A stretch of DNA of 51,502 bases from Escherichia coli (GCF_048403405.1 NZ_CP183133.1); one strand, 5' to 3'. Positions 1 to 41,386 are shown, counted from the stretch's first letter. Numbers and translations are program-made. The notes: generated by a model not told the origin, from the sequence alone.

Positions 1-812
1 GTTCATGAGTAATCCCGGTGAGATAGCGGCTTTTGGCCTGATTAGCATCGTCGGCATCTTCCTTTGCCTGCTGCAATTGCCGGTCCGTCGCTTCATGGGC
101 AATAATTTCTTTCATCAGACGGTCGCTTTGCAGGCGCAATTCCTCTTGCGCAATCTGGCGACTTTTATTTGTCAGGACAAATAGCCAGGTGGTGACGCCG
201 GTTACGATAAGCAGGATAAAAAAAACTTTCCATAACGCCGCGGCGAGAAGGTCCTGCTCGCTGCCGAATTCATCGCGCATCTGAGCGAAAACCAGCATCA
301 AAAGCAGACCGATGACGGAACTGAATAACAGCAAAATGCTGATAAAACTCCACACTCTGGGATCAATTTTGCGTAATGATTTTTCTTTAATAAATATCCC
401 GATAAGCTTTGAAGCCTGTTCCGTATAGCGCGCATGAGGTTTGCAAGTATCGTTGCACTGGACATCGAGAGAACAACATAGTGAGCAAATACTGCCCTGA
501 TAAAAAGGACAATAGCTCATCTCTGGTTTTTCAAAATAATTACCGCAGACACAGCATTCCGTTGCCGTGACCTGCACCGGCGTCCGGGAAAAATAGTAAC
601 GTCCGCGAGTCAGCCAGGCGATGAAGGGGGCGGTGATAAACGTCAGACACAACGATAACATTGAGGCAAAAACCTGTAGAGGATGACCAAGCCATCCCAT
701 CCAGGCTGAGAGACCGCAGAGCATGGCGAGCGTCATCGAACCGATGCCGACAGGATTGATATCGTAGAGATAGGCCCGGCGAAACTCTATTTCCGCTGGT
801 CGTAATTTAAGC
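1..812 (-). pseudogene. Sensor histidine kinase, membrane-sensor portion; 5' end removed by IS26; continues in frame from 50160..51502 across the window junction
   Basis: Minus-strand frame is open from 811 to 1 with no stop; four predicted TM helices, a Cys-rich segment (CCVCGNYFEKPEMSYCPFYQGSICSLCCSLDVQCNDTCKP) and the start of an H-box (SRYLTGITHE) that completes as ITHELRTPLN when joined to the window end. Abuts the IS26 IR at 813. Confidence 0.6.
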
Positions 813-1632
813 GGCACTGTTGCAAAGTTAGCGATGAGGCAGCCTTTTGTCTTATTCAAAGGCCTTACATTTCAAAAACTCTGCTTACCAGGCGCATTTC
901 GCCCAGGGGATCACCATAATAAAATGCTGAGGCCTGGCCTTTGCGTAGTGCACGCATCACCTCAATACCTTTGATGGTGGCGTAAGCCGTCTTCATGGAT
1001 TTAAATCCCAGCGTGGCGCCGATTATCCGTTTCAGTTTGCCATGATCGCATTCAATCACGTTGTTCCGGTACTTAATCTGTCGGTGTTCAACGTCAGACG
1101 GGCACCGGCCTTCGCGTTTGAGCAGAGCAAGCGCGCGACCATAGGCGGGCGCTTTATCCGTGTTGATGAATCGCGGGATCTGCCACTTCTTCACGTTGTT
1201 GAGGATTTTACCCAGAAACCGGTATGCAGCTTTGCTGTTACGACGGGAGGAGAGATAAAAATCGACAGTGCGGCCCCGGCTGTCGACGGCCCGGTACAGA
1301 TACGCCCAGCGGCCATTGACCTTCACGTAGGTTTCATCCATGTGCCACGGGCAAAGATCGGAAGGGTTACGCCAGTACCAGCGCAGCCGTTTTTCCATTT
1401 CAGGCGCATAACGCTGAACCCAGCGGTAAATCGTGGAGTGATCGACATTCACTCCGCGTTCAGCCAGCATCTCCTGCAGCTCACGGTAACTGATGCCGTA
1501 TTTGCAGTACCAGCGTACGGCCCACAGAATGATGTCACGCTGAAAATGCCGGCCTTTGAATGGGTTCATGTGCAGCTCCATCAGCAAAAGGGGATGATAA
1601 GTTTATCACCACCGACTATTTGCAACAGTGCC
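813..1632 (-). mobile_element. IS26 (IS6 family), copy 1, 820 bp
   Basis: Terminal 14-bp IRs GGCACTGTTGCAAA at 813-826 and TTTGCAACAGTGCC at 1619-1632; encodes Tnp26. Flanking 8-mers differ (ATTTAAGC / ACGCACGT), so no direct target duplication. Confidence 0.95.
865..1569 (-). CDS. tnpA: IS26 transposase Tnp26 (234 aa)
   Basis: ORF-track protein MNPFKGRHFQRDIILWAVRWYCKYGISYRELQEMLAERG... matches IS26 transposase as I recall it; start taken at the MNPFKG methionine inside the 240-aa ORF. Confidence 0.9.
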   Translation of the reverse strand: MNPFKGRHFQRDIILWAVRWYCKYGISYRELQEMLAERGVNVDHSTIYRWVQRYAPEMEKRLRWYWRNPSDLCPWHMDETYVKVNGRWAYLYRAVDSRGRTVDFYLSSRRNSKAAYRFLGKILNNVKKWQIPRFINTDKAPAYGRALALLKREGRCPSDVEHRQIKYRNNVIECDHGKLKRIIGATLGFKSMKTAYATIKGIEVMRALRKGQASAFYYGDPLGEMRLVSRVFEM

Positions 1633-5300: not shown

Positions 5301-6357
5301 GGCTTTGTTGAATAAATCAGATTTCGGGTAAGTCTCCCCCGTAGCGGGTTGTGTTTTCAGGCAATACGCACGCTTTCAGGCATACCTGCTTTCGTCATTT
5401 TGTTCAGCGCTCGTACCAGGGCCATAGCCTCCGCAACCTGACCATCGTAGTCACGCAGCGTCAGTGAACCCCCGAACAGCTGTTTTACCCGGTACATCGC
5501 CGTTTCCGCTATCGAGCGACGGTTGTAATCTGTTGTCCATTTCCACCGCGCATTACTCCCGGTCATTCGCTGATTCGCAACAGCACGGTTACGGTCTGCA
5601 TATTCACCGGGCCAGTAACCCGCGCCTTTTCGGGGTGGGATAAGCGCGCTGATTTTCTTACGCCGCAGTTCATCGTGACAGAGCCGGGTGTCGTAAGCGC
5701 CGTCTGCCGATGCTGCCCTGATTTTTCTGTGAGTCTGCCGGATAAGACCCGGGAAGGCTTCTGAGTCCGTCACATTGTTCAGCGACAGGTCTGCACAGAT
5801 GATTTCATGTGTGTTGCTGTCAACTGCCAGATGCAGCTTACGCCAGATACGGCGGCGTTCCTGACCATGCTTTTTGACTTTCCACTCGCCTTCACCGAAG
5901 ACCTTCAGCCCGGTGGAATCAATTACCAGGTGTGCGATTTCACCCCGGGTGGGCGTTTTGAAACTGATATTAACCGACTTTGCCCGCCTGCTGACACAGC
6001 TGTAATCCGGGCAGCGTAGCGGAACGTTCATCAGAGAAAAAATGGAATCAATAAAGCCCTGCGCAGCGCGCAGGGTCAGCCTGAATACGCGTTTAATGAC
6101 CAGCACAGTCGTGATGGCAAGGTCAGAATAGCGCTGAGGTCTGCCTCGTGAAGAAGGTGTTGCTGACTCATACCAGGCCTGAATAGCTTCATCATCCAGC
6201 CAGAAAGTTATGGAGCCACGGTTGATGAGGGCTTTATTGTAGGTGGGCCAGTTGGTTATTTTGAACTTTTGCTTTGCCACGGAACGGTCTGCGTTGTCGG
6301 GAAGATGCGTGATCTGATCCTTCAACTCAGCAAAAGTTCGATTTATTCAACAAAGCC
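5301..6357 (-). mobile_element. IS903 (IS5 family), copy 1, 1057 bp
   Basis: 18-bp terminal IRs GGCTTTGTTGAATAAATC at 5301-5318 and inverted at 6340-6357; flanking 9-mers differ. Confidence 0.9.
5357..6280 (-). CDS. tnpA: IS903 transposase (307 aa, GTG start inside the 322-aa ORF)
   Basis: ORF translation ...[43 protein letters not shown]... matches IS903 transposase as I recall it. Confidence 0.85.
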   Translation of the reverse strand: MAKQKFKITNWPTYNKALINRGSITFWLDDEAIQAWYESATPSSRGRPQRYSDLAITTVLVIKRVFRLTLRAAQGFIDSIFSLMNVPLRCPDYSCVSRRAKSVNISFKTPTRGEIAHLVIDSTGLKVFGEGEWKVKKHGQERRRIWRKLHLAVDSNTHEIICADLSLNNVTDSEAFPGLIRQTHRKIRAASADGAYDTRLCHDELRRKKISALIPPRKGAGYWPGEYADRNRAVANQRMTGSNARWKWTTDYNRRSIAETAMYRVKQLFGGSLTLRDYDGQVAEAMALVRALNKMTKAGMPESVRIA

Positions 6358-7376: not shown

Positions 7377-8432
7377 GCTTTGTTGAATAAATCAGATTTC
7401 GGGTAAGTCTCCCCCGTAGCGGGTTGTGTTTTCAGGCAATACGCACGCTTTCAGGCATACCTGCTTTCGTCATTTTGTTCAGCGCTCGTACCAGGGCCAT
7501 AGCCTCTGCAACCTGACCATCGTAGTCACGCAGTGTCAGTGAACCTCCGAACAGCTGTTTTACCCGGTACATCGCCGTTTCCGCTATCGAGCGACGGTTG
7601 TAATCTGTTGTCCATTTCCACCGCGCATTACTCCCGGTCAGCCGCTGATTCGCAACAGCACGGTTACGGTCTGCATATTCACCGGGCCAGTAACCCGCGC
7701 CTTTTCGGGGTGGGATAAGCGCGCTGATTTTCTTACGCCGCAGTTCATCGTGACAGAGCCGGGTGTCGTAAGCGCCGTCTGCCGATGCTGCCCTGATTTT
7801 TCTGTGAGTCTGCCGGATAAGACCCGGGAAGGCTTCTGAGTCCGTCACATTGTTCAGCGACAGGTTTGCACAGATGATTTCATGTGTGTTGCTGTCAACT
7901 GCCAGATGCAACTTTCGCCATATACGACGGCGTTCCTGGCCATGCTTTTTGACTTTCCATTCGCCTTCACCAAAGACCTTCAGCCCGGTGGAATCAATCA
8001 CCAGATGCGCGATTTCACCCCGGGTGAACGTTTTGAAACTGACATTAACCGACTTTGCGCGCTTGCTGACACTGGTGTAATCCGGGCAGCGCAACGGAAC
8101 ATTCATCAGTGTAAAAATGGAATCAATAAAACCCTGTGCAGCCCGCAGGGTCAACCTGAACACGCGTTTAATGACCAGAACGGTGGTGATGGCGAGATCA
8201 GAATAGCGCTGAGGTCTTCCCCGTGATGAAGGCGTTGCCGACTCATACCAGGCCTGAATAGCTTCATCATCCAGCCAGAAAGTTATGGAGCCACGGTTGA
8301 TGAGGGCTTTATTGTAGGTGGGCCAGTTGGTTATTTTGAACTTTTGCTTTGCCACGGAACGGTCTGCGTTGTCGGGAAGATGCGTGATCTGATCCTTCAA
8401 CTCAGCAAAAGTTCGATTTATTCAACAAAGCC
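7377..8432 (-). mobile_element. IS903, copy 2
   Basis: IRs GGCTTTGTTGAATAAATC at 7377-7394 and inverted at 8415-8432; about 98% identical to copy 1 by eye; no 9-bp target duplication. Confidence 0.9.
7432..8355 (-). CDS. tnpA: IS903 transposase
   Basis: 322-aa ORF nearly identical to copy 1. Confidence 0.85.
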   Translation of the reverse strand: MAKQKFKITNWPTYNKALINRGSITFWLDDEAIQAWYESATPSSRGRPQRYSDLAITTVLVIKRVFRLTLRAAQGFIDSIFTLMNVPLRCPDYTSVSKRAKSVNVSFKTFTRGEIAHLVIDSTGLKVFGEGEWKVKKHGQERRRIWRKLHLAVDSNTHEIICANLSLNNVTDSEAFPGLIRQTHRKIRAASADGAYDTRLCHDELRRKKISALIPPRKGAGYWPGEYADRNRAVANQRLTGSNARWKWTTDYNRRSIAETAMYRVKQLFGGSLTLRDYDGQVAEAMALVRALNKMTKAGMPESVRIA

Positions 8433-8512
8433 GTCTGTGTTGTAAAATGGCGCCGAAAGCCCGGCGTAGCCGGTTGCCGGGCTATAAATTCTGCCACCCT
8501 ACCCCCTGCCCT
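8433..8512 (-). other. Conserved structured element, copy C (5' half only; cut by IS903 copy 2)
   Basis: Reverse complement CAGGGCAGGGGGTAGGGTGGCAGAATTTATAGCCCGGCAACCGGCTACGCCGGGCTTTCGGCGCCATTTTACAACACAGACGG aligns with the 5' half of copy B (45065-45140). Confidence 0.35.
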
Positions 8513-8920
8513 GATTAGCCTTAACTCGCGAACAGCAATGAAGAAGTCAAAGTAATCCCTTTTAACCCCGGTGAGCGGGCTTTACGGCGTTTACGACGTA
8601 AAGGGCGTGATTTCCGGGGCCTAAGCGGCGGCAGCTTGCTGCTGACGCTTAGGGGGATGTTCATCAACTATTTCAGCGACACCAGGGAACTTAACACGGT
8701 AGCTGCAAAGCCCTAATCCCGCTCACCGCCACGCAGCTGCCGTACGTCCCCCACGGGGGTGCGCAGTGCTGCGCGCGGGAACGGCGGCCCGTCTGCGGGA
8801 CGCGGCGCCGTACTGCGCGTTAGCGGCCGCACGCGGCCGGTTACGGGGGACACTCCGCCATACGACCAGCGACCCGCTGAGCTGCACAATCCACAGATAA
8901 CACAAGCTACATACATGTCG

Positions 8921-9716
8921 ATATGGGAATCGGCCCACCTTGCCGGGCGCCGGTGCCGTGTGGAAATCCGCCCACCTTGCCGCGCGCCGGTGCCGTGTGG
9001 GAATCCGCCCACCTTGCCGGGCGCCGGTGCTGTGTGGAAATCCGCCCACCTTGCCGCGCGCCGGTGCCGTGTGGGAATCCGCCCACCTTGCCGCGCGCCG
9101 GTGCCGTGTGGGAATCCGCCCACCTTGCCGGGCGCCGGTGCTGTGTGGAAATCCGCCCACCTTACCGGGCGCCGGTGCTGTGTGGAAATCCGCCCATCTT
9201 GCCGGGCGCCGGTGCCGTGTGGGAATCCGCCCACCTTGCCGGGCGCCGGTGCTGTGTGGAAATCCGCCCACCTTACCGGGCGCCGGTGCTGTGTGGAAAT
9301 CCGCCCATCTTGCCGGGCGCCGGTGCCGTGTGGGAATCCGCCCACCTTACCGGGCGCCGGTGCCGTGTGGGAATCCGCCCACCTTACCGGGCGCCGGTGC
9401 CGTGTGGGAATCCGCCCACCTTACCGGGCGCCGGTGCTGTGTGGAAATCCGCCCATCTTGCCGGGCGCCGGTGCCGTGTGGGAATCCGCCCACCTTGCCG
9501 GGCGCCGGTGCTGTGTGGAAATCCGCCCACCTTACCGGGCGCCGGTGCTGTGTGGAAATCCGCCCATCTTGCCGGGCGCCGGTGCCGTGTGGGAATCCGC
9601 CCACCTTACCGGGCGCCGGTGCCGTGTGGGAATCCGCCCACCTTACCGGGCGCCGGTGCCGTGTGGGAATCCGCCCACCTTACCGGGCGCCGGTGCTGTG
9701 TGGAAATCCGCCCATC
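8921..9716. repeat. Tandem array, about 21 copies of a 37-bp GC-rich unit (TGTGGGAATCCGCCCACCTTGCCGGGCGCCGGTGCCG); iteron-like, downstream of the truncated rep gene
   Basis: Motif CCCACCTT recurs at 8934, 8971, 9008, 9045 (period 37); units are contiguous with no spacers; variant positions alternate (G/C, C/T, G/A). Confidence 0.85.
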
Positions 9717-9765
9717 TTCATGACAAAAATTTGTCAAATGACAGGCTCATGTGTGCTGATTTATG

Positions 9766-10068
9766 TCAGACGGGATTTTGCTTATCAATTATTGAGAACA
9801 GAAATTTTCCTGAATCATCAATACTATACTTAGCAAGTAAAGGTGTTTTCTCATTTATCTGCTTGAGAGCAGGATCAAGGAAAGATCGTTTCAACTCTGC
9901 CAAGTTCTTCTGTTGGGATTCCGGCAAAAGGAAACGGTCATTTAACCAAGCATGAGTAGTAACCCATAAGCCTGAAGATTTGAATTGAGCAAGACTTTCA
10001 TAAAGGCGGATCGTCCGGGGATTTCGAAGACTGCCACAATCGCGGAGCGAGTAGGTGGTGAACTGGTT
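9766..10068 (-). pseudogene. Rep_3-family replication initiator, C-terminal fragment (5' end removed by IS1)
   Basis: Minus-strand translation ...LYESLAQFKSSGLWVTTHAWLNDRFLLPESQQKNLAELKRSFLDPALKQINEKTPLLAKYSIDDSGKFLFSIIDKQNPV* parallels the RepB C-terminus (RLYESLCQFRSTGVWITTHDWL...). Confidence 0.6.
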
Positions 10069-10083
10069 GGTAATGACTCCAAC

Positions 10084-10587
10084 TTACTGATAGTGTTTTA
10101 TGTTCAGATAATGCCCGATGACTTTGTCATGCAGCGCCACCGATTTTGAGAACGACAGTGACTTCCTGCCCAGCCTTGCCAGATGCTGCCTCAGATTCTG
10201 GTTATGCCGCTCAATTCGCTGCGTATATCGCTTGCTGATAACGTGCAGTTCTCCCTTCAGGCGGGATTCATAAAGCGGCCAGCCATCCGTCATCCATACC
10301 ACGACCTCAAAGGCCGACAGCAGGCCCGGAAGACGCTCCAGCGTGGCCAGAGTACGCTCACCAAAGACGCGTGCCACCACCGTCCTGCACATCCTGCCAT
10401 AGGCGTAAAATAACCAGCGCTGACGTGATTTAGCCCCGACGTAGCCCCACTGTTCGTCCATTTCCGCGCAGACAATGACGTCACTGCCCGGTTGTATGCG
10501 TGAGGTTACCGACTGCGGTCTGAGTTTTTTAAGTGACGTAAAATCGTGTTGAGGCCAACGCCCATAATGCGGGCGGTTGCCCGGCAT
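10084..10587 (-). CDS. insB: IS1 InsB
   Basis: ORF translation [64 protein letters not shown]... Confidence 0.9.
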
Positions 10588-10781
10588 CCAACGCCATTCA
10601 TGGCCATATCAATGATTTTCTGGTGCGTACCGGGCTGAGAGGCGGTGTAAGTGAACTGTAGCTGCCATGTTTTACGGCAGTGAGAGCAGAGATAGCGCTG
10701 ATGTCCGGCAGTACTTTTACCGTTACGCACCACGCCTTCAGTAGCTGAGCAGGAGGGACAACTGATGGAGATGGAAGCCAC
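10506..10781 (-). CDS. insA: IS1 InsA
   Basis: ORF translation [46 protein letters not shown]... Confidence 0.9.
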
Positions 10782-10864
10782 TGGAGCACCTCAAAGACAC
10801 CATCGTACACTAAATCAGTAAGTTGGCACCATTATCCGGCAGGCGATCTGGATTATCGTCACGC

Positions 10865-12785
10865 TGTTAAATATGTCGCGGTAGGGATACCCGTTACCGG
10901 ATACCCCCCGCACAGATCCCGGCGTGCGCGATTTACGCACCGGGCTCCTGCCTCGGGTGTCTGGCGGTGAACCGCTCCACAGGCCATGGATGAAGAACCC
11001 GAACCCTTGGTAGCCATGCGGCTGCCAGTTTGTTTGCTTTCGTCCAGGTCGTATCATCCTTCTGGCTCCTGCGCCTGAGCGCCCGGCGCCAGAGGTTTGT
11101 TACGTGTGTCCTGAACTTCTGCATGGTGGGGAAGTTGCCCGGTACCGAGTGATAGTTCAGGTATCCCTGAACCACTCTCCTGAGCCATTTTCCCTGTTCG
11201 GGGATTGAGTAATGCCAGCGCCTTCGCAGACCGTCTTTGATGGCTTTCAGAGTTGCCGTCATCCGATCCCGGCGGGTCTTTCGTATCAGCATGAACCTGC
11301 CGTTGCGATCTTTCCCGCTGATGTGCGTGAACCCGAGGAAGTTGAACGTTTCTGGTTTGCCTTTTCCCCTGATGGCACGGTTTTCGGCAGCGAAGCGGCC
11401 GAACTCCATCAGACGGGTTTTCTCCGGGTGAACCGTGAGTCCGAACTCCCTCAGTCTGCGCTGCATGGCTATACGGAAGCGCCGGGCATCGTATCGTTTG
11501 TCGAACCCGATGACGATGTCATCGGCGTATCTGACCATTACCACATTGCCTGTGGCATAGCGACGTCGCCACTGATGCGCCCACAGATCGAAGACGTAGT
11601 GGAGGTATATGTTTGCCAGCAGCGGTGAGATGACCGCACCCTGTGGGGTGCCTTCCTCCGTTGCTCGCCATTGACCCTCCTCCAACGTCCCGGCTGTGAG
11701 CCACTTACGTATGAGCCTGATTACGCTCCGGTCGCCGATCCGATGCTCTGTGAACCTGATCAGCCATTCGTGGCTCACCCTGTCGAAGAACTGACTGATG
11801 TCGGCATCCAGTACCCAGTTTACGTTAGTGCGTACCAGCCCTGTGGCCAGTGCGTCCAGTGCATCGTGCTGGCTTCGCCCGGGTCTGAACCCGTATGAGA
11901 ACCCCATAAAGTCGTTTTCATAGACTGCGTTCAGGATTTTCACCAGCGCATACTGGACGATCTTGTCCTCCAGCGAGGCGATGCCGAGCGGGCGTTGTTT
12001 TCCATCCGCTTTTGGGATGTAGTGACGCCTGCCGGGCTGCGCCCTGTAGCTGCCCTGATGTAGCCTCCGGTGCAGATCTGTTATGTTGTTCTTCATGTTT
12101 CCGGCGTAGTCCATCCACCTGATGCCATCCACTCCGGCGGCCGCTTTCCTGCTCAGGGAGAGGAATGCGGCTTCCAGTGCTTCGACTGTCAGCAGGTGGA
12201 ACAATGCTGTAAACCGTTCTTTCTTCCGCTGCTTCGCAGCTTCCCGCACGCGTGACAGCCTCTGTGACATGCTTTCCCGGCTCTGTGTCCGGCGCATGTG
12301 TGGCTGTTCCGCGTTCCCCTTGGCCCCGCTCCTTCGCTCCACTGACTCCGCTCCTTTCGGGTTGTTCGCCTGCTTCGCCGCTACTATGAGCGAGTCCGAC
12401 TTCTCCTCTCCGTACATCACCGGCTATGACTCCTCGTCTTCCCGGTGCGGGCCGTCTCCGACACTGGCAGATGGTCAGAGGGGAGATCTCCCGGTTCCCG
12501 CGTAGAGATCGTATTGACATGCCAGGGTCTCAGACCCCGCCGGGTCCATGTGGCACTCGCAGTATCGCACCCTATGATGTTGCCTTCCGTTAACAGTACA
12601 ACGTCGGCACCCGGTAATTTAATATACATTTCGTGGCTCAATGGCTGGCCTGTCAACACCCCTGTCAACGCTTCGCCCCATACCTCGCGGTATGCAACGC
12701 ATGACTCGGGGACCTTGTGGATTGCTGGTCCTTCAATGGTCGGGGACTTTCACCCCTTGATCTCTACCGGTCTCCCGGCGAACAC
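10865..12785 (-). mobile_element. Group II intron (approximate boundaries) carrying an RT/maturase ORF
   Basis: Domain-V-like hairpin GAGCCCGGTGCGTAAATCGCGCACGCCGGGATC (minus strand, plus coords 10915-10947) overlaps the RT stop; about 490 nt of structured sequence lies 5' of the RT start; exact 5'/3' ends not resolved by eye. Confidence 0.5.
10933..12297 (-). CDS. Group II intron reverse transcriptase/maturase
   Basis: ORF translation has RT motifs (…KADGKQRPLGIASLEDKIVQ…GTPQGAVISPLLANIYLH…VRYADDIVIGF…) and a maturase-like C-terminus; start placed at MRRTQSRE (the ORF track extends to 12420). Confidence 0.8.
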   Translation of the reverse strand: MRRTQSRESMSQRLSRVREAAKQRKKERFTALFHLLTVEALEAAFLSLSRKAAAGVDGIRWMDYAGNMKNNITDLHRRLHQGSYRAQPGRRHYIPKADGKQRPLGIASLEDKIVQYALVKILNAVYENDFMGFSYGFRPGRSQHDALDALATGLVRTNVNWVLDADISQFFDRVSHEWLIRFTEHRIGDRSVIRLIRKWLTAGTLEEGQWRATEEGTPQGAVISPLLANIYLHYVFDLWAHQWRRRYATGNVVMVRYADDIVIGFDKRYDARRFRIAMQRRLREFGLTVHPEKTRLMEFGRFAAENRAIRGKGKPETFNFLGFTHISGKDRNGRFMLIRKTRRDRMTATLKAIKDGLRRRWHYSIPEQGKWLRRVVQGYLNYHSVPGNFPTMQKFRTHVTNLWRRALRRRSQKDDTTWTKANKLAAAWLPRVRVLHPWPVERFTARHPRQEPGA

Positions 12786-12800
12786 TGTATGTATAACCAG
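12785..12800 (+). promoter_or_regulatory. LexA-box-like operator (CTGTATGTATAACCAG) upstream of umuD
   Basis: Matches the CTGT-N8-ACAG SOS-box pattern with one half-site mismatch; 26 bp upstream of the umuD ATG. Confidence 0.5.
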
Positions 12801-12825
12801 TAAAATTAGAGTGTCAGGAGGAAAG

Positions 12826-13257
12826 ATGAAACTACAACTTTTCAGCACCGGGAAAGAACTCCCGCCACAGGCCCATCCATTGTTTGCCGATCTGGCCAGC
12901 TGCGGTTTTCCCAGCCCTGCTGCTGACTATGTCGAGTCCGATCTGGATCTCCATGATTACTGCATACGGCATCCGAGCGCGACGTACTACCTGCGTGCCA
13001 GCGGAGACAGCATGGCCGACGGCAGTCTGTACAATGGCGATCTGCTGGTTGTGGACAGTGCTGAAAAGCCGCGGCACGGCGATATCGTTGTCGCCAGCAT
13101 GCAGGGGGAGTTTACGGTGAAACGGCTTCTGCTGACGCCGCGACTGACGCTGCAGCCCATGAATGCCTCCTGGTCGCCGATTTATCCTGATCCCGACGAG
13201 CTGGATATCTTTGGCGTCGTCACGCATATCATCCACCGCCCGAGGGAGATGTACTGA
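12826..13257 (+). CDS. umuD: UmuD (translesion polymerase V accessory subunit)
   Basis: RBS AGGAGG before ATG 12826; translation [37 protein letters not shown]...[20 protein letters not shown]... resembles UmuD. Confidence 0.9.
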
Positions 13258-14528
13258 TGTTTGCCCTGGCCGATGTGAACAGCTTCTATGCCAGCTGTGA
13301 ACGTGTTTTCCGCCCGGATTTGAAAGGAAAGCCGATAGTCGTCCTGAGCAACAACGACGGGAATGTAATCGCTCGCAGTGCCGAGGCGAAGCCCTGGATC
13401 AAAATGGGAACTCCGTGGTTTCAGATAAAAAACGAAAGATACCCGGAAAAAATATATGCGTTTTCAAGTAATTATGAACTTTACGCCTCGATATCGGCGC
13501 GCGTGATGAACTGCCTGGAGGAACTGGCCCCCAGGGTGGAACAGTATTCAATTGATGAGATGTTCCTCGACCTGACCGGCGTGGAGCACTGTATGGGGCT
13601 TGAGGACTTCGCCCGGCAGCTGCGTCAGCAGGTGTATGACTGTACCCGCCTGACCATTGGCGTGGGCGCCGGACCAACGAAAACCCTCGCAAAATCAGCC
13701 CAGTGGGCCTCAAAAGAGTGGAAACAGTTTCATGGCGTACTCGCTCTGACCAGGGGAAATCCGCAAAGGACGCGGAAACTGCTTTCACTGCAGCCGGTTG
13801 AAGAAATCTGGGGGGTGGGTAACCGTATTGCACGCAAGCTAAATGTGCTGGGCATAAAAACCGCGCTCGATCTGGCTCTGACGAACCCGGCCTTCATCCG
13901 CAAAAATTTTTCTGTCGTCCTTGAGCGAACGGTACGGGAACTGAACGGGGAAAGCTGCCTTTCGCTTGAGGAAGCCCCTCCGACGAAACAGCAAATTGTC
14001 TGCAGCCGCAGTTTTGGCGTGAAGATCACGGAGTACGAGTCACTCCGTCAGGCTATCTGTCAGCACGCAGAGCGGGCCTCTGAAAAACTGCGTAAAGAGC
14101 ACCAGTATTGCCGGCATATTTCCGTTTTCATCAAAACGTCTCCGTTCGCCATTAAAGAGCCTTACTACGGCAACGTGGCTACGGAAAAACTTCTTACACC
14201 CACTCAGGACACCAGGGACATCATTGCAGCCGCTACAACGGCTCTGGAGCGTATCTGGAGGGATGGGCACCGGTATGCCAAAGCCGGAGTTATGCTGAAT
14301 GACTTCACCGGCTCCGGAGTTTCGCAGCTGCAACTGTTCGACGAACGCCCGCCACGCCCTCACAGTGCTGAGCTGATGAGGGTTCTGGACGGGATCAACA
14401 ACTCAGGGCTGGGTAAAGTATGGTTTGCGGGGCGGGGTATGGCCCCGGAATGGCAGATGAAACGGGAGATGCTTTCTCCTGCTTATACGACACGATGGTC
14501 AGATATTCCTGCAGCGAAACTGGCGTGA
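13257..14528 (+). CDS. umuC: UmuC (error-prone DNA polymerase V catalytic subunit)
   Basis: 423-aa [44 protein letters not shown]... (Y-family polymerase); ATGA overlap with the umuD stop. Confidence 0.9.
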
Positions 14529-14609: not shown

Positions 14610-15587
14610 TTATTGACTCAAATTTCTGTCAAGGACTTCGTTGATAGCCTTGTCCAGTTCATCCTGAATCACTTTTGACATACGGCTAAACTCATAAGTC
14701 AGCGTGCGCCCTTTCACACGCTTACGCGCGAACTTGTCCTTTTCTTCAAAAGACCAGAGTGGGGAAACCACTGACTTTTCCTTGGGAGATGGATCTATCA
14801 ATGCCTGAGATGCCTGAGAAATCAGCTTCAGAATACTGGCTTTCTGTTCGTCTTCTGGTCGCTCGCCATCACTCAAAATTGCATCGAGCTGAGCTGATAC
14901 AGACTGAATGAGTTCTTCAGGCGTTAATCCCTTTTCACCGAGTTTTTCATTAACTTCTAAAAGAAGTTTATAATCACTAAACGATAGCTCCGACTGAACC
15001 GGGAACAGAGAAATTAAGTCTTGCGGTACGGCCGCCGCCTGCAGCGCCCTGGTAACTTTAGCCTGAGATAATCCCTCCAGTTCAGCAATTTCCTTTTGAT
15101 TAAATCCGGACTCTTTAAGAGCGATCAATCTCAGACCAATCTCCCGAAGATTATGTTCTTTAGCTGTCTGGATATCTTTAGCCAGTTGGCGAGCTTCATC
15201 AGCTGATAAATGTTCTTCGGTAACCATTACATCAAGGCCTGTACGGACAAAAATTGCTGAGGCTCGCCGTCTTGAACCATCCAGTATCTCAATCCTTTCA
15301 CTTTGCTTAATACCAATACAGGGAAAGAACTGCTGAAACTTAATCGTCTGGATAATGGATTTCAGAGACTCCCTGGTCAGTGCAAGTTGATCTCTTCCAT
15401 TGTTTTCCTGGTTTACGAAGGTCTTACTTTCAACTTCAGATGCAGGCACCCGAACAAACCTGAACGTTACCTTCCTGCCGGTTTTTAAGGTAAATACCTG
15501 ACTTCTACCGGTGTCAGCCATTTCGAGCATTGACGCCTGAGTATTTAACTGTCTGCCGATGGTTTTTCTTTTCTCATTCGACATCAC
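14610..15587 (-). CDS. parB: ParB (P1 ParB-like centromere-binding protein)
   Basis: 325-aa ORF strongly resembles P1 ParB as I recall it (…IEILDGSRRRASAI…KEGLSQAKVTRALQAA…FARKRVKGR…). Confidence 0.9.
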   Translation of the reverse strand: MMSNEKRKTIGRQLNTQASMLEMADTGRSQVFTLKTGRKVTFRFVRVPASEVESKTFVNQENNGRDQLALTRESLKSIIQTIKFQQFFPCIGIKQSERIEILDGSRRRASAIFVRTGLDVMVTEEHLSADEARQLAKDIQTAKEHNLREIGLRLIALKESGFNQKEIAELEGLSQAKVTRALQAAAVPQDLISLFPVQSELSFSDYKLLLEVNEKLGEKGLTPEELIQSVSAQLDAILSDGERPEDEQKASILKLISQASQALIDPSPKEKSVVSPLWSFEEKDKFARKRVKGRTLTYEFSRMSKVIQDELDKAINEVLDRNLSQ

Positions 15588-16789
15588 ATACCTCCGTTAG
15601 TACGAATGAACTCGATGCGATCAAAGACTGCCTTCGCAAAGTCTTCCGCTGCTGATTTTGCGCTTTTTAGTGCCTCTGTACTTCCATCATAGGTTGCTGG
15701 ATTTGCTGAAATAACTGTGTCAAAAGTCTCCCCACAACGTTCGAAACCATCCAGTCTTGGCAGAACCATGTCTAGCATATCGGCACCGAAAACCTCTTTG
15801 GCCTGACTATGGCAAATTTTGTGATCAGACTTGTTCAGGATCTTGGACATGAAGCCGACATTACCGATGAGATTGCAGGTGTGCCCATCCATTTCGATGG
15901 AATCTATGAGGGCAGGGAGGCTGGCCACAAACTTCAGGGAAGAATGAAAATCAACCGTCGCCGGTGGAAGAGGGGTCAACATCAGGTCTGCCGCCCCAAT
16001 GCAGTTTTTCAGGAACGCATCAAGGTGAGGACCACTATCAAGGAAAATAAAGTCGTAGTCATGCTGGAGCTTGTCGATAATGTTCTCTTTAAGCACCGCA
16101 TGAATATTTTTCCCTGGCAGATGTTCTTCACACAATCCCTTCCAGCCTTCAGCAAGGAATGCATCGTCAATGGAAGCGGGGATTACATCAACACCAGGGA
16201 TAATAGACGGTACTATAAAATCGGAAAGTAATTCTTCACGAGACACGTTCTGGAGCATGGCCTGAGCAGCCGTATTTTCAACCAAGCCCACTGAATTCTC
16301 ATGGCTCAGGAACATTGTCAGAGATGCCTGCGGATCGAAATCGATGGCCAGAATACGCAGGTCTTCGAACAGAAGCTGAGGATGAGCTCGAAAAGCATGT
16401 GATAATGAAGCGGTAGAAACTGTCTTGGAACCACCACCTTTAAGATTACATACAAAAATCGTAAAGGCTTTATCGAAGCGATCCCTGTACTTCGGTACTT
16501 TACGATGGTTATACAGATCGATGACATTCTGAATCGTCATCGCGTATTTCATCGTATTACCAGAAGGTTTCTTTTTAAAAATGTAGCCACCGGCTTCCAT
16601 TTCGGACACAGCATACTCAACACTGCCTTTACTGAGCTTAGGCAGCTTATACAGAGCGGCTTTGCTGTATTCCTGATAGAACTCGGTAAGCTTCAATTCC
16701 TCTTTTTGCTGTCGGATACTTTCGCTCAAAGATGTCAGAAGCTTACCTGCACGTGTAGCGACTTTCCGTAACTGCTCAATATTGTCCAT
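15584..16789 (-). CDS. parA: ParA (type Ia partition ATPase with N-terminal HTH extension)
   Basis: 401-aa ORF with deviant Walker A NLKGGGSKT; 4-bp overlap with parB. Confidence 0.9.
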   Translation of the reverse strand: MDNIEQLRKVATRAGKLLTSLSESIRQQKEELKLTEFYQEYSKAALYKLPKLSKGSVEYAVSEMEAGGYIFKKKPSGNTMKYAMTIQNVIDLYNHRKVPKYRDRFDKAFTIFVCNLKGGGSKTVSTASLSHAFRAHPQLLFEDLRILAIDFDPQASLTMFLSHENSVGLVENTAAQAMLQNVSREELLSDFIVPSIIPGVDVIPASIDDAFLAEGWKGLCEEHLPGKNIHAVLKENIIDKLQHDYDFIFLDSGPHLDAFLKNCIGAADLMLTPLPPATVDFHSSLKFVASLPALIDSIEMDGHTCNLIGNVGFMSKILNKSDHKICHSQAKEVFGADMLDMVLPRLDGFERCGETFDTVISANPATYDGSTEALKSAKSAAEDFAKAVFDRIEFIRTNGGM

Positions 16790-17649: not shown

Positions 17650-18372
17650 CTATTGTTTTTTATCAAGAAAATTAAACAGCAAGCGACCATCTTCTTCAGT
17701 GGTATATGTTACCTTTAATGGCGTCTTCTCATTAATTTTCTTCAGAGCAGGTTCCAGGAAGGTACGCTTCATTTCAGCAATATTGTTTTTCTGCGAGGCA
17801 GGGAGCATAAACCTTTCACATAACCAGTCATGTGTGGTGATCCAGACACCAGTGCTCCGGAACTGACACAGGCTTTCATAAAGCCGGATGACACGAACAC
17901 TATTAAGCTGGCCACAGTCATAGAGAGAATAGGTAGTGAACTGGGAGGTTAAGCCGACCAGGAATGGCATGACCTTGTAGTTAAATTCAATCTGCCAGGA
18001 ACCCCGGCCTCGCTTCATTCCTGCTTCAGCCAGCCACGGACGTTTAACTTCTTCAAACTCACCTTCTTTTGGATAAAAGGTAACCGTTGATTCGCCCAGA
18101 GCATTTACCCCAGCCTTCACATCACGACTGGCGACAGACGTAGCGACATTGAAGTATTTGACGTAATCGGAAACGCTGATTTTGAAGAGCGGCAATACGT
18201 CAGAGTCATCTTCCTGGCTGTCATTAAAATAGGCCTGCATGAGGCATAACCACAGCACACGTTTTGCCTGAAGAGGCAGGTAATATGCAGCTTCGGTCAA
18301 TTCGTTAGATTGCTTTATACTGGCGCGTTTTTTAAACGTTTTAGTAGCTGGCAAGAGTGCTTGAGTATCCAT
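17650..18372 (-). CDS. repB: Replication initiator RepB (Rep_3 / RepE-like)
   Basis: Translation from MDTQALLPATKTFKKRASIKQSNELTEAAYYLPLQAKRVLWLCL…RLYESLCQFRS… parallels F RepE; start set at the inner ATG (18372) because the upstream in-frame ATG (18516) lies inside operator repeats. Confidence 0.8.
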   Translation of the reverse strand: MDTQALLPATKTFKKRASIKQSNELTEAAYYLPLQAKRVLWLCLMQAYFNDSQEDDSDVLPLFKISVSDYVKYFNVATSVASRDVKAGVNALGESTVTFYPKEGEFEEVKRPWLAEAGMKRGRGSWQIEFNYKVMPFLVGLTSQFTTYSLYDCGQLNSVRVIRLYESLCQFRSTGVWITTHDWLCERFMLPASQKNNIAEMKRTFLEPALKKINEKTPLKVTYTTEEDGRLLFNFLDKKQ

Positions 18373-18720
18373 TTCAATGCCTATGGGTAAATTTTTACCC
18401 ACCCATAATGACAGTGAAAACAGAAATTGCAAGCTATCGCGATACTTATCCACCGGAAAAATCTGCACTTTATCCACAAGTGGATAATTGAGAACTGAAC
18501 TTGACCTCTTTCCCATAGCTTGTTGATGCGTATCCCATAGCTTGTTGACACAAAACCCACTGATACGTGATTAATTTCCCATATTATGTTTACCAGTTGC
18601 CCATACAGGCCCCCTCTCAGGCCGCACTGTACGCGGCTTTCAGGCTCCCTAAAAGATGTAAAATAAAGAAAAAGAATAAAAAAGTACTTTATAAAAATAT
18701 GCCCGTGGATAAGTGGATAA
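18373..18720. promoter_or_regulatory. repB operator / putative oriV
   Basis: Inverted DnaA boxes TTATCCACAAGTGGATAA (18470-18487); two 16-bp direct repeats TCCCATAGCTTGTTGA (18501-18540); AT-rich tract 18640-18700; tandem DnaA boxes GTGGATAAGTGGATAA (18705-18720). Confidence 0.55.
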
Positions 18721-27910: not shown

Positions 27911-28867
27911 TTATCGCATTCTCACAAGCAGCCAGACAAACCACGGTGCGCCGATAATGGCGGTCAGCACGCCTGCCGGAAGCTCCAGCGGCGGATGAAT
28001 GATTCGTGCCAGCAGATCGGCAATGACCAGCAACAACGCGCCCGTCAGGGCCGAAACGGGCATCAGCCAGCGGTGACGCCCGCCGGCGATCCTGCGCACC
28101 ATGTGCGGCACGACGAGACCAATAAAACTTATCGGGCCACAGACGGCCACGCCGGTTGCTGTCATCGCGACAGCCAGCATCAGCCCCTGGAACCGGGTGC
28201 GCTGAACCGACACGCCGAGCGTGGCTGCTCGTGCATCGCCCAGCGCCAGCAGGTCGAGATCGCGACAAAAGCGCAGGCTCAGCGGCAAAAACAGAATGAG
28301 CAACGGCACGGCAATCTTCACAAAGTGCCAGTCGCGCCCCCATAAGCTACCCGTCAGCCACAGCAGGGCACTGTTTACATCCTGCGGGTGCAGGAGCATC
28401 AGGTAATCCGTCAGGCTCGCCCAGCAGGCGGAAAGCGCCACGCCGGTGAGCGCCAGCTTCATCGGCTGGTGGGTCTTTGCCAGCATCTTCAGCAAGATCA
28501 ACCCCGCCATACCGCCCGCAAAGGCCAGCAGCGGCAGCACCATCACGGATAGTGATGGCATAAGAAGCAGTGCTCCCACAGAGGCAAGGCTGGCGGCATG
28601 GTTAATGCCGAGAATATCCGGTGATGCTAGCGGGTTACGCACAATCCCCTGTACCAGCACGCCCGCCACGGCGAGGGCTGCACCGACAAACAGTGCCAGC
28701 AGCAAGCGCGGCAGTCGGTACTCCATCAATACATAATAATGCTCGCGTCCGTCCTGCCAGTCGGTCAGCAGCGCGCGCCACGGCACGGGGATCACCCCCA
28801 TATGGAGTGATAACAGCGCACAGCCTGCCAGGGCAAGGGTGATGAAAATGACCAGCGCAATTTTCAT
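27911..28867 (-). CDS. fecD: Ferric citrate ABC transporter permease FecD
   Basis: Start at MKIALVIFITLALAG, overlapping the fecC stop (ATGA); the 524-aa track ORF is an upstream extension. Confidence 0.85.
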   Translation of the reverse strand: MKIALVIFITLALAGCALLSLHMGVIPVPWRALLTDWQDGREHYYVLMEYRLPRLLLALFVGAALAVAGVLVQGIVRNPLASPDILGINHAASLASVGALLLMPSLSVMVLPLLAFAGGMAGLILLKMLAKTHQPMKLALTGVALSACWASLTDYLMLLHPQDVNSALLWLTGSLWGRDWHFVKIAVPLLILFLPLSLRFCRDLDLLALGDARAATLGVSVQRTRFQGLMLAVAMTATGVAVCGPISFIGLVVPHMVRRIAGGRHRWLMPVSALTGALLLVIADLLARIIHPPLELPAGVLTAIIGAPWFVWLLVRMR

Positions 28868-29862
28868 CCTCGCCTCCTCACCAGCCAGACAAAGCAAGGA
28901 CTGCCAATCAGCGCCAGCACTGCGCCTGCGGGCAGATCGCCGGGGAAGGCCAGCGCGCGTGCGAGTACATCTGCCATCAGCATCAGCGTGGCCCCCAGCA
29001 GCATGCTCACCGGCAGTACGTTGCGCTGATCGAAGCCTGCCCAGAAGCGCGCCAGATGTGGCACCAGCAGGCTGATAAACGCCACCGGACCTGCCACACT
29101 GACGCACGCGCCAACCAGAAGCAGCACTAACATATTGATGATCAAACGTAGTCTCGGCAGGTTCACTCCCAGCGTATGGGCGGTACTGTCGCTGACGTTG
29201 AGCAGGTTCAGTTGATTCGCCAGCAGCAACACGACAGGGACTGCAGTGACCACCACCGGCAAGAGCTGCCAGACATCCTGCCAGTGGGCGTGGGACACTC
29301 CGCCTGCCAGCCAGTAAAAGATGCCGTAAGCATGATCTTCGGCCAGCAGCAGGGTGATGCGGGTCAGGGCCATACAAAAGGCCGACAGCGCGATACCCGC
29401 GAGGATCAGTTTGTTTCTGTCCTGGGTATGACGAAACCCGCCTCCTGCGGTCATGACCAGCAGCCAGCTCACGCCGCCCCCGCATGCCGCGATGAACGAC
29501 AGGGAATAGCCTGCAACCGGCGTCGGACTCAGCGCGCTGGTAAGCGCCATAGCCAGCGCCGCGCCGCTGTTAATGCCGAGCAGTGAAGGAGAGGCCATTG
29601 GGTTGTGGGTCAGGGTTTGCAGCAGCGTGCCCGCGAGCGCCAGGCTTGCGCCGATCAGAACGGCGACCAAGCTTCGCGGCAAACGAAGGTTTTGCACCAG
29701 CGCTTCTGGTAGCGTTGGCGTGTGTCCAGGCAGCAGGGCGCGGATTGCGTCTGCTCCGGAAACAGGAATGGCCGAGTAGCAAAACAGACTCAGCCAGAAA
29801 ATAATAATAAGTACTGCAACGGGAAGCCCCCACAGCAGCACCGGGTGTTTTAGCGCGGTCAT
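28864..29862 (-). CDS. fecC: Ferric citrate ABC transporter permease FecC
   Basis: 332-aa FecCD-family permease. Confidence 0.85.
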   Translation of the reverse strand: MTALKHPVLLWGLPVAVLIIIFWLSLFCYSAIPVSGADAIRALLPGHTPTLPEALVQNLRLPRSLVAVLIGASLALAGTLLQTLTHNPMASPSLLGINSGAALAMALTSALSPTPVAGYSLSFIAACGGGVSWLLVMTAGGGFRHTQDRNKLILAGIALSAFCMALTRITLLLAEDHAYGIFYWLAGGVSHAHWQDVWQLLPVVVTAVPVVLLLANQLNLLNVSDSTAHTLGVNLPRLRLIINMLVLLLVGACVSVAGPVAFISLLVPHLARFWAGFDQRNVLPVSMLLGATLMLMADVLARALAFPGDLPAGAVLALIGSPCFVWLVRRRG

Positions 29863-30767
29863 TTCACATCGGTAAGCGGCTGATGGTGGAAGATTTTTAC
29901 CGTGTCAGCGGCAATACGCTCTGCGGCAAAAATACCGCGCATCCGCGCCCAGGCGTTACTGTCGACTGAAGCAACCTGCTGCTTCTGCGCGGCGGTTAAT
30001 ATCTGCCAGAGCGGATCTTGTTGCCAGCGTTTAACAATGCTCTCTTCGCGATAGTGGGCAACCAGCAGCCAGGCAGGATTGACCGCCAGCAGTTGCTCCA
30101 GGCCGATGGACGGCATGGACGCGCCCGCCATCGCAGCGGGAACATTCAGCCCCAGAGAAGCCAGCACGCTGCCGGTCCAGGTCTCCTGGGTATGCAGGTT
30201 GAATAGCTGTTCGCGTGATGTGCCAAAGGCCACGCGTGTCCCTGTGGGAAGCTGGCTGGCCCACTGCGCCATCTTCTCTTTATGTTGTTCCAGACGCGCC
30301 TGCATCTCTCGTTTTTTACCTACCACTTCGCCGATGATAGCCGCTGAGTGCAAATTTTCAGCGTAGGTTTCGTTGCGGGACTTAAGCAGCAGTACCGGCG
30401 CGATTTGCTGCAAGGCGGTGTAAATCCCCGCATGGCGACTGCTGTCGGCAATGATCAGGTCTGGTTTCAGGGCAGCAATGGCTTCCAGGCTCGGCTGCGC
30501 GCGCGTTCCGACGGACTGCCACGGTTTCAGGTGCGCACGCACTTCGGGCATGATGCGTTTTGCATCGTTATCGTCGGCAATACCGATCGGGCTGACGTCC
30601 ACGGCGGCCAGCGCATCGGCGAACGAGAGTTCCAGCACCACAATCCGTTGTGGCGTTTTATCGAGTGTAAACGTGCCGTGTTCGTCCTGAACCGTGGCGG
30701 CAAAGGCGTGGCCGATCACCAGCAGCAGGCCTGCAAAAATAAAACGGATAAATGCCAACATAGTCAC
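29859..30767 (-). CDS. fecB: Periplasmic ferric citrate-binding protein FecB
   Basis: 302 aa with signal peptide; siderophore-type periplasmic binding fold. Confidence 0.85.
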   Translation of the reverse strand: MTMLAFIRFIFAGLLLVIGHAFAATVQDEHGTFTLDKTPQRIVVLELSFADALAAVDVSPIGIADDNDAKRIMPEVRAHLKPWQSVGTRAQPSLEAIAALKPDLIIADSSRHAGIYTALQQIAPVLLLKSRNETYAENLHSAAIIGEVVGKKREMQARLEQHKEKMAQWASQLPTGTRVAFGTSREQLFNLHTQETWTGSVLASLGLNVPAAMAGASMPSIGLEQLLAVNPAWLLVAHYREESIVKRWQQDPLWQILTAAQKQQVASVDSNAWARMRGIFAAERIAADTVKIFHHQPLTDVK

Positions 30768-30805
30768 ATTCCAGCTAAAAGCCCGGCAAGCCGGGCGTTA
30801 ACACA

Positions 30806-34166
<3,361 letters not shown>

Positions 34167-34170
<4 letters not shown>

Positions 34171-34688
34171 AACCCATGCTCCAGACGAAACAGCAGGCAG
34201 TGCTCGACGGCTTTCGCCACGTATTTTTTCACGGAGCTGACGGAAACACCGAGTTTGTGCGCAATCTCGCTGTATGTCAGGCCATCCAGTTGCGAAAGCA
34301 GAAACGCTTCACGTGTTTTTCCGTTTAGCCCGTCCAGCATGCTGTCGACGAGTTGTAGGGTCTCGAGCTGGCTTTCGCGTTCCTCAGGTGAAGGCGCTCC
34401 CCCCTCCGGCATAAGCGCCAGCATCTCCAGATACGCTTTTTCCAGCGCGTTTCGGCGAAACAGGTCCACCATCACGCGTTTGGCGATAGTGCACAGGAAA
34501 GAGCGAGGATCGCGGATCGTCGAGAGCGTTTCGCTGCTCATTACCCGCAAAAAAGTGTCCTGGGCAATGTCATCTGCATCAAAGGCAGACTGGAGTTTGC
34601 GCGTCAGCCAACTTTTCAACCAGCCGTGATGGGTGCCATAAAGCGACTCGAACGTTAAGGAAGCTGTGGTAGTGGCACGGTCAGACAT
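34167..34688 (-). CDS. fecI: ECF sigma factor FecI
   Basis: 173 aa, [28 protein letters not shown]…. Confidence 0.9.
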
Positions 34689-39725: not shown

Positions 39726-39734
39726 CAGGGGAAG

Positions 39735-41342: not shown

Positions 41343-41386
41343 TTTGATGGCGCCGGGACGGCGCCGCTGCTTAAAGGAGAGTCAGG

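Follow-up and report, generated by a model that had tools for sequence, protein, structure and literature searches.

The stretch analysed here (the window: 51,502 nucleotides of Escherichia coli DNA, NZ_CP183133.1 in GCF_048403405.1) carries in its first 812 positions part of a gene for a hybrid histidine kinase, which is cut at one end by a copy of IS26 and followed at the other by the gene of a response regulator. What the original prediction (a note made from the sequence of the window) stated about the sequence itself was confirmed throughout. An open minus-strand frame occupied positions 1–812 and ran past base 1 into 51502 as far as a stop codon at 50160–50162. A colinear alignment of the window with the Klebsiella pneumoniae plasmid CP023937 (98.9% over 8.15 kb) spanned both window ends, and the record is therefore circular; its origin falls two codons past the phospho-accepting His678 (bases 7–5). 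Codons 410–1126 of the kinase were kept (minus strand, 812 to 1 and then 51502 to 50160), and codons 1–408 together with two bases of codon 409 (1226 nt) were absent from the window, the element breaking codon 409 between its second and third bases, so that the truncation by IS26 first proposed was borne out. The features of the junction, kinase and regulator are listed below, with transmembrane helices (TM) and, unless stated, residues numbered as in the intact kinase.

813–1632, minus strand: IS26 copy, 820 bp, with 14-bp inverted repeats GGCACTGTTGCAAA at 813 and 1619; its end abuts kinase codon 409
865–1587, minus strand: IS26 transposase gene (open reading frame 1587–865, 240 aa), reading towards the kinase fragment
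1–812, minus strand: 5' part of the kinase remnant (last base of codon 409, codons 410–679, first base of codon 680), with no start codon of its own; frame open across the window ends
754–692, minus strand: predicted TM11, residues 429–449, last-but-one helix of a CodB/NCS1-like 12-TM domain
679–611, minus strand: predicted TM12, residues 454–476, last helix of the same domain
443–556, minus strand: eight-cysteine (Cys8) domain, residues 495–532, motif CxxC-x11-C-x7-CxxCC-x5-C-x3-C, from translation and conservation
355–287, minus strand: TM13, residues 562–584, hydropathy peak 2.8
within 173–355, minus strand: polar or charged 13-residue loop between TM13 and TM14, from the sequence
247–173, minus strand: TM14, residues 598–622, hydropathy peak 2.4
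38–172, minus strand: signalling helix/coiled coil, residues 623–667, with a conserved SRxxAxxE motif (conservation, and a helix in the model)
5–7, minus strand: codon of the phospho-accepting His678, in the H-box THELRTPLN (translation)
37–1 then 51502–51339, minus strand: HisKA domain, fragment residues 259–325 (Pfam, 1.7e-15)
50160–51502, minus strand: 3' part of the kinase gene with the rest of HisKA, HATPase_c, receiver, 104-aa tail and stop codon 50162–50160 (Pfam and translation)
51200–50877, minus strand: HATPase_c domain (Pfam, 2.5e-25)
50798–50475, minus strand: receiver domain, Response_reg (Pfam, 2.3e-22)
50163–50474, minus strand: C-terminal tail, residues 1023–1126, 104 aa, with a degenerate HPt-like motif L-x2-[LM]-[AG]-x-[IL]-G-[YH]-x2-G, from conservation
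50160–50197, minus strand: 38-nt overlap, shared by the end of the kinase gene and the beginning of the regulator gene, from coordinates
49277–50197, minus strand: intact response regulator gene, 306 aa, with REC at 50176–49844, a PAS-like domain at about 49789–49523 and a LuxR/GerE helix-turn-helix (HTH) domain at 49474–49310

Positions 1–812 were identical (100%) to CP023937 135645–136456, and the intact kinase gene was delimited at 7775–11155 of a plasmid locus (L001; 3381 nt, 1126 codons). The 812-nt stretch occurred at ≥99% identity in 350 plasmids, nearly all of Klebsiella; 352 plasmids had the 1226 nt lost from the window and 350 had the regulator gene, so that plasmids as a rule carry the locus intact. 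The junction of IS26 and kinase found in the window was present in no PLSDB record among the matches listed, none of which covered ≥80% of the junction query. Pfam searches identified HisKA, HATPase_c and REC in the kinase, together with REC and the GerE/LuxR HTH in its partner, in agreement with the hybrid sensor kinase and REC-X-LuxR regulator described earlier; the H-box histidine, HATPase_c and C-terminal receiver place the protein among HisKA-class hybrid kinases.

From N- to C-terminus, the intact kinase is, as modelled, a CodB/NCS1-like 12-TM domain of LeuT fold, the Cys8 domain, a two-helix hairpin, the signalling helix, HisKA, HATPase, receiver and a short tail. The AlphaFold2 model of residues 1–640, calculated from a 44-sequence alignment reaching down to 29% identity, had a predicted local distance difference test score (pLDDT) of 89 and a predicted template modelling score (pTM) of 0.89, and its 12-TM LeuT fold could be superposed on CodB and Mhp1. 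The best structure match was the cytosine permease CodB (7qoa; score 31.1, 395/400 residues aligned, 16% identity), followed by the LeuT-fold carrier AgcS (26.5) and Mhp1 of the NCS1 family (25.6), with other LeuT-fold carriers below these three and SLC5 members well below. Pfam returned nothing for residues 1–642 even at E ≤ 10 (Transp_cyt_pur included), and searches of the same residues against NCBIfam and PDB sequences were likewise empty (no meaningful match in NCBIfam). Alignment of the family profile with E. coli CodB (hhalign) gave an E-value of 2.8e-5 at only 74% probability, over TM1–TM6; a DxxRF motif after TM6 and, compared by eye, an NAxYAxG-like motif in TM8 were common to the kinase family and CodB. 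The family, judged from its model, fails the NCS1 sequence definition yet has the NCS1 fold.

Hydropathy (Kyte-Doolittle means over 19 residues, cut-off 1.5) reached 2.0 in TM12, 2.8 in TM13 and 2.4 in TM14, and TM11, which fell below the cut-off, was assigned from the AlphaFold model and from its superposition on CodB. The four transmembrane helices of the original prediction thus stand as four hydrophobic segments (754–692, 679–611, 355–287 and 247–173, minus strand), but they are only the tail end of a 14-TM protein; according to the model, the first two of them are TM11 and TM12 of the CodB/NCS1-like domain, whose first ten helices were removed by IS26.

In CodB, Gln105, Trp108 and Phe204 recognise or sandwich cytosine (PMC9379551). 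The hhalign comparison, a remote and therefore tentative alignment, placed Thr126, Phe129 and Leu233 of the kinase family at these three positions, respectively, so that the aromatic residue is kept at the second alone and the nucleobase sandwich of NCS1 carriers (Trp108/Phe204 with Gln105) was not found. Four family-invariant polar residues, Glu133, Gln236, Glu239 and Gln240, tentatively line the region equivalent to the CodB pocket. Lys332 in TM8 (lost from the window; L001, approximately 8768–8770) was nearly invariant and, by eye and tentatively, lies at about the position of the sodium-coordinating Thr278/Thr279 of CodB; in CbrA a lysine likewise occupies the Na2 site, and the resemblance would point to operation independent of sodium.

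The 40-aa string CCVCGNYFEKPEMSYCPFYQGSICSLCCSLDVQCNDTCKP, encoded at 556–437 (minus strand), holds nine cysteines, as had been noted, against six in the remaining 1086 residues of the full-length kinase. Eight of the nine showed no variation across 114 close homologues or across 44 selected diverse sequences, some of them relatives of about 30% identity, and the ninth (C496) was variable; in a separate 44-sequence alignment (to 29% identity) six of the eight were strictly invariant and two were conserved at ≥90%. The region was modelled as a small β-hairpin and a short helix (pLDDT 85–91). No Pfam family matched the segment at E ≤ 0.001 (only sub-threshold singletons appeared), and a profile of it searched against PDB sequences gave no match beyond the CxxC-x-F knuckle of C2H2 fingers, where the scores were inflated by repeats and the matches spurious. 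Carriers of the CodB type finish on the cytoplasmic side of the membrane, where the kinase must also lie, and this puts the Cys8 domain in the cytoplasm as well. Because eight invariant cysteines lie in a reducing compartment, two tetrahedral metal sites are the simplest reading, and our best guess for the metal is zinc, in what would be a structural two-metal clamp, with an Fe-S cluster as a less likely alternative.

By hydropathy and topology, TM13 and TM14 should form a helical hairpin that joins the sensor module to the kinase. This segment was found in the kinases and in GGDEF-EAL fusions and was absent from stand-alone proteins, and the SRxxAxxE helix occurred only where a signalling domain follows. 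The C-terminal tail was considered as an HPt domain and rejected, since Klebsiella has Tyr at the position of the would-be phospho-histidine and only 46 of 115 homologues have His there; Pfam gave no Hpt match in the kinase, and no search was made for an HPt protein encoded elsewhere.

The regulator was confirmed at 49277–50197 (minus strand, 306 aa), with Pfam matches to REC (residues 8–118) and the GerE/LuxR HTH (242–296). The approximately 120 residues between them, previously described as unassigned, indeed had no Pfam match, but structure prediction gave them a PAS-like fold of about 90 residues (AlphaFold pLDDT 89 for residues 119–306), and the structure matches of the model included PAS-HTH proteins such as EL222 and VqmA. 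The REC-PAS-LuxR order and a length of 299–329 aa were kept in all of at least 120 homologues. The protein therefore has the REC and C-terminal GerE/LuxR HTH of NarL/FixJ regulators, and differs from their two-domain form of about 200–220 aa with a short linker. The overlap reported earlier was confirmed at 38 nt, from the regulator ATG at 50197 to 50160, where the kinase stop codon ends, and suggests that the two genes are translationally coupled; the corresponding overlaps were 4–17 nt in Bradyrhizobium, Halomonas and Halopseudomonas, and in 67 of 74 genomes the regulator began approximately −10 to +160 nt from the stop codon of the kinase.

On Klebsiella plasmids the kinase/regulator pair is divergent from urtABCDE-amiF, and the same arrangement recurred in Bradyrhizobium, Halomonas, Halopseudomonas and a metagenomic relative of 34% identity. 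The linked genes encode a UrtA-type binding protein, ATP-binding cassette (ABC) transporter components and AmiF/FmdA formamidase and/or AmiE aliphatic amidase, often with FmdB and an AmiB-like AAA protein. In a scan of one genome per species, at least 587 genomes contained a relative, and locus statistics were drawn from the best 80 species-level loci of these, with regulator orthologues sought by full-length query (tblastn with the middle domain alone was too weak at E 1e-10). In these 80 loci a regulator gene followed the kinase in at least 67 of 74 cases, a divergent urtA gene lay directly upstream in 55 of 70, and 37 of 53 had amidase genes no more than 10 kb away.

The kinase-urtA spacer and/or the region upstream of fmdA/amiE contained a palindrome, TACGY-N6-RCGTA, with the extended consensus ATACGY-nRnWTn-RCGTAT. 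It was first spotted by eye and afterwards tested as a pattern, with ≤1 mismatch allowed: it occurred in 47 of 54 kinase-urtA spacers compared with 1 of 80 control stretches, and exact copies numbered 76 in 1.46 Mb where about 5.5 would be expected under uniform base composition. A search for shared perfect inverted half-sites of 6–7 nt in intergenic regions found nothing. The sites in individual loci are as follows.

L001, 7653–7668 (the palindrome at 7652–7669 being ATACGTCATTTAACGTAT)
L002, 9905–9920
L003, 2627–2642
L005, 1941–1956
L008, 3702–3717 and 8122–8137

We regard the palindrome as a candidate operator for the REC-PAS-LuxR regulator; it is of the type expected for a LuxR-type dimer.

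Among 1.84 billion representative proteins, the family comprised 1,647 clusters (50% identity) at E ≤ 0.001. Its encoding contigs showed hybrid kinases (for example P0343, 34% identical), GAF/PAS-GGDEF-EAL fusions of 1252–1554 aa (L007, L010 and L011) and stand-alone proteins, about 560 aa long, in which little follows the last cysteine (L006 and L012); AFDB added PPM-phosphatase fusions of the CodB-like and Cys8 module (A0A1C3RJV9 and A0A1W9MRF1). Both stand-alone genes examined adjoin a gene for a GntR/UTRA regulator, a pairing that might represent the same sensing logic in one-component form. The Cys8 domain was equally present with a kinase, with GGDEF-EAL or with no output, and so belongs to the transporter-like module. 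Foldseek matches in AFDB50 were only unnamed entries ('histidine kinase', 'diguanylate cyclase', 'PPM-type phosphatase'); in line with the earlier failure to assign the pair to a named system, none was found for it in NCBIfam, Pfam, PDB sequences, AFDB descriptions or the open-access literature, and no paper on the kinase or the regulator was found in that literature, most subscription journals being outside its scope.

The element at the junction has the 820 bp, 14-bp terminal inverted repeats and single transposase gene of IS26, and the plasmid matches carry an IS26 annotation. A second, identical copy lies at 22675–23494 in inverted orientation, and none of the four flanks gives a matching 8-bp duplication; the junction therefore arose from an IS26-mediated rearrangement and not from simple insertion, and the inverted pair indicates deletion or inversion events of this kind in the shaping of this small plasmid. 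By comparison with CP023937, the promoter/operator region, the whole urt-amiF operon and TM1–10 of the kinase were lost from the window. A promoter reading out of IS26 was looked for, and no promoter-like site was found on the relevant strand at the junction; as a hybrid promoter for the kinase fragment, the −35 element TTGCAA in the inverted repeat was rejected for want of an acceptable −10 at 16–18 nt. The remnant has no in-frame start codon before Met435, which lies inside TM11, and the operator palindrome was not found anywhere in the 51.5-kb window. The regulator frame is intact and identical to the common allele. On these features we take the kinase copy for a pseudogene and the regulator for an orphan, and expression, if there is any, would need read-through from the IS26 transposase gene; the pair in the window is on this view a scar of IS26 activity, for which pseudogene and orphan regulator are the proper annotation.

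The explanation that we favour, with a probability of roughly 60%, is that the window holds the remnant of a transporter-fused, amide-sensing two-component system (a 'transceptor') that acts as proposed below and was left dead here by the IS26 rearrangement. In the intact system a small amide (formamide, acetamide or possibly urea) would occupy the remodelled substrate pocket of the transporter-like domain. The conformational change would pass through the Cys8 domain, a metal clamp at the cytoplasmic face that would do the job of STAC in CbrA, and then by way of the TM13–14 hairpin to the kinase; the phosphorylated regulator would bind ATACGY-N6-RCGTAT and activate genes for uptake and hydrolysis. 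In the window the rearrangement removed the first 408 codons, the promoter/operator and the target operon, and what is left would be a kinase stub, either unexpressed or blind to the signal, together with an orphan regulator. All of these functional statements about the intact kinase and regulator family are ones that we infer.

Several observations weigh against this explanation. It is the gene neighbourhood alone that points to the ligand of the kinase, about one-fifth of the sampled loci have no adjacent urtA gene (these fall in branches with other or no visible targets), and some loci carry only a 40%-identical binding protein, so that the family is not uniform. The N-terminal domain falls outside Pfam and NCBIfam models, the changes at CodB-equivalent pocket positions (Q105 to T, F204 to L) count in the same direction, and ligand binding or transport by the domain is putative. 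AlphaFold2 drew residues 560–639 (window 361–122, minus strand) as one unbroken 80-residue helix instead of a two-TM hairpin, as did the AFDB model (TM-score 0.97); the topology, with both Cys8 and kinase cytoplasmic, requires a hairpin or another even-numbered arrangement there. The metal of the Cys8 domain and its binding geometry are putative, and position and conservation are what suggest that the regulator binds the palindrome. Finally, the kinase has a receiver but no conserved HPt histidine by which a His-Asp-His-Asp relay to the regulator would be completed.

A true urea sensor controlling a true urea importer is the alternative that survives best, and we judge it unlikely. The cluster is called a urea ABC transport system in papers on Klebsiella of sequence type 307 (ST307) and clonal group 307 (CG307) (PMC5506382, PMC13060141), its binding proteins score above the NCBIfam UrtA cut-off, and the related fmd cluster of Methylophilus methylotrophus is induced by urea. 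Those scores, however, barely exceed the cut-off (504–556 bits against 492.75), the linked enzymes are formamidase (AmiF/FmdA) and aliphatic amidase (AmiE), and urease was not seen in any locus examined. For the Urt-like cluster of Bradyrhizobium, the TIGRFAM-based SIMBAL study of Selengut et al. concluded that acetamide/formamide, and not urea, is probably imported (PMC3098086).

It had also been suggested that the cysteine-rich multi-TM unit senses metal or redox state, in which case the occupancy or redox state of a metal site or Fe-S cluster in the segment itself would control the kinase. This we regard as improbable. Eight invariant cysteines within about 40 cytoplasmic residues, directly upstream of the transmission helices, would suit such a role, Cys-ligated Fe-S clusters do sense redox in some kinases, as described for the chloroplast sensor kinase, and a redox-active cofactor is compatible with all results obtained. 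The cysteines are, however, just as invariant in the ~560-aa proteins without a signalling output and in the GGDEF-EAL fusions, following the transporter-like domain whatever the output; the neighbouring genes serve the transport and hydrolysis of amides or urea, that is, nitrogen scavenging, with no metal-efflux or oxidative-stress genes in the loci examined; and the cysteine spacing is unlike that of classical ferredoxin-type motifs. What stands of the suggestion is that the stretch very probably binds metal; that it is the sensing unit does not.

There is little to recommend the view that the truncated kinase is alive, with IS26 transposase read-through and a start at Met435 yielding a kinase that lacks its sensor, is constitutively active and acts on the orphan regulator. 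The tnp gene does read towards the fragment, Met435 is in frame, and nothing is missing from the kinase core, the receiver or the regulator; against this, besides the missing promoter-like site and operator palindrome, there is no obvious ribosome-binding site ahead of Met435, and the product would begin inside TM11. Least credible is that the transporter-like domain still recognises a cytosine- or purine-like nucleobase and is linked to amide genes only indirectly. CodB is the closest fold, several homologues bear the Joint Genome Institute (JGI) label 'purine-cytosine permease-like' and Phe129 keeps the aromatic character of Trp108, but Thr126 and Leu233 replace Gln105 and Phe204, the invariant E133, Q236, E239 and Q240 stand in their stead and the neighbourhoods lack nucleobase catabolic genes.

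The amide-sensing explanation can be extended, more tentatively and at somewhat below even odds, to the whole family. The CodB-like 12-TM domain with Cys8 would then be an unrecognised portable receptor module for small amides or related nitrogen compounds, used in at least four architectures (as a hybrid kinase, with GAF/PAS-GGDEF-EAL, with a PPM phosphatase and on its own next to GntR), with Cys8 converting the transporter cycle into a signal; it would join SLC5/STAC as a second large class of LeuT-fold transceptors and supply the missing regulator of the Klebsiella ST307 'urea transport system' (UTS).

Transporter-kinase fusions have been described as rare, those studied being of the SLC5/STAC type (CbrA, CrbS and RpuS, the precedents for LeuT-fold fusions; PMC13022988) and one Amt fusion, and by analogy these are probably the closest systems in function. 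As in CbrA/CbrB, CrbS/CrbR and RpuS/RpuR, a LeuT-fold transporter is N-terminal to the kinase and connected by a small cytoplasmic coupling domain; those systems control the uptake or catabolism of small nutrients, and CrbS is likewise a hybrid kinase. Unlike them, the present kinase has 12 + 2 TM instead of 13, would be coupled by a putative metal-binding Cys8 domain and a TM hairpin instead of the four-helix STAC, and has no PAS domain, the PAS-like domain sitting in the regulator; Pfam found neither SSF nor STAC in the kinase, and Cys8 occupies the place of STAC. With CodB/Mhp1 it shares an almost completely superposable 12-TM LeuT fold and DxxRF after TM6; it differs in lying outside the Pfam family model at only 16% identity, in its altered pocket residues, in Lys332 where CodB has sodium ligands (by eye, tentative) and in the C-terminal Cys8 domain, plus signalling domains in most members.

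The ammonium sensor kinase Ks-Amt5 similarly fuses a transport protein for a small nitrogen compound to a histidine kinase, but has the Amt/Rh fold and senses ammonium, and the abstract describing it reports no Cys-rich module (PMC5764959). AmiC/AmiR, which controls the aliphatic amidase of Pseudomonas aeruginosa, and FmdB of Methylophilus likewise respond to short-chain amides by regulating genes for the uptake and hydrolysis of amides; AmiC/AmiR does so by a soluble binding protein and an ANTAR antiterminator without a phosphorelay. Compared with NarL/FixJ regulators and one-component PAS-LuxR regulators (EL222, VqmA), the regulator described here joins REC, PAS and HTH in 306 aa, and no characterised regulator with this arrangement was found.

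If correct, these proposals would add a second large transceptor class, with a different transporter fold subfamily and a new eight-cysteine domain absent from curated libraries, and would provide a concrete model, including a conserved operator sequence, for the control of formamide/acetamide utilisation in Proteobacteria. They would also identify the likely regulator of the plasmid UTS cluster of Klebsiella ST307/CG307, whose substrate may be amides and not urea. That cluster has been proposed as a urinary-tract fitness factor in the CG307/ST307 papers, and the 'urea transport system' papers never mention the two regulators (PMC5506382, PMC13060141).

The window is a complete replicon, with a RepE-like initiator (17650–18516), parA/parB (14610–16789), umuDC (12445–14528) and a group II intron reverse transcriptase/maturase (10933–12420), and looks like a 51.5-kb deletion derivative of the 190–280-kb IncFIB(K) plasmids of the pKPN3/pKPN-307 type. 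A second, unrelated amide-type island lies at 36243–44624 (plus strand) and also contains Opp/Gsi-like ABC transporter genes and creatininase fragments; its main genes are listed below.

36243–37370, plus strand: AmiC-like binding protein
37367–37960, plus strand: ANTAR regulator
41387–42334, plus strand: acetamidase/formamidase-family gene

The ST307 literature names this region the 'glutathione ABC transport system'; its gene content suggests instead an amide or creatinine-related pathway under antitermination control of the AmiC/AmiR type. As in the parent plasmids, a complete fecIRABCDE operon for ferric-dicitrate uptake is present (27143–34688, minus strand). There are three IS5-family transposase genes (5357–6325, 7432–8400 and 47313–48281) and two copies of IS4321 (24876–25880 and 46035–47039). 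Just downstream of the regulator (48464–49135) are an IS3-family integrase fragment and, by eye, an apparent IS91-family transposase fragment, and the IS5 and IS4321 neighbours of the regulator are the same in the intact plasmids.

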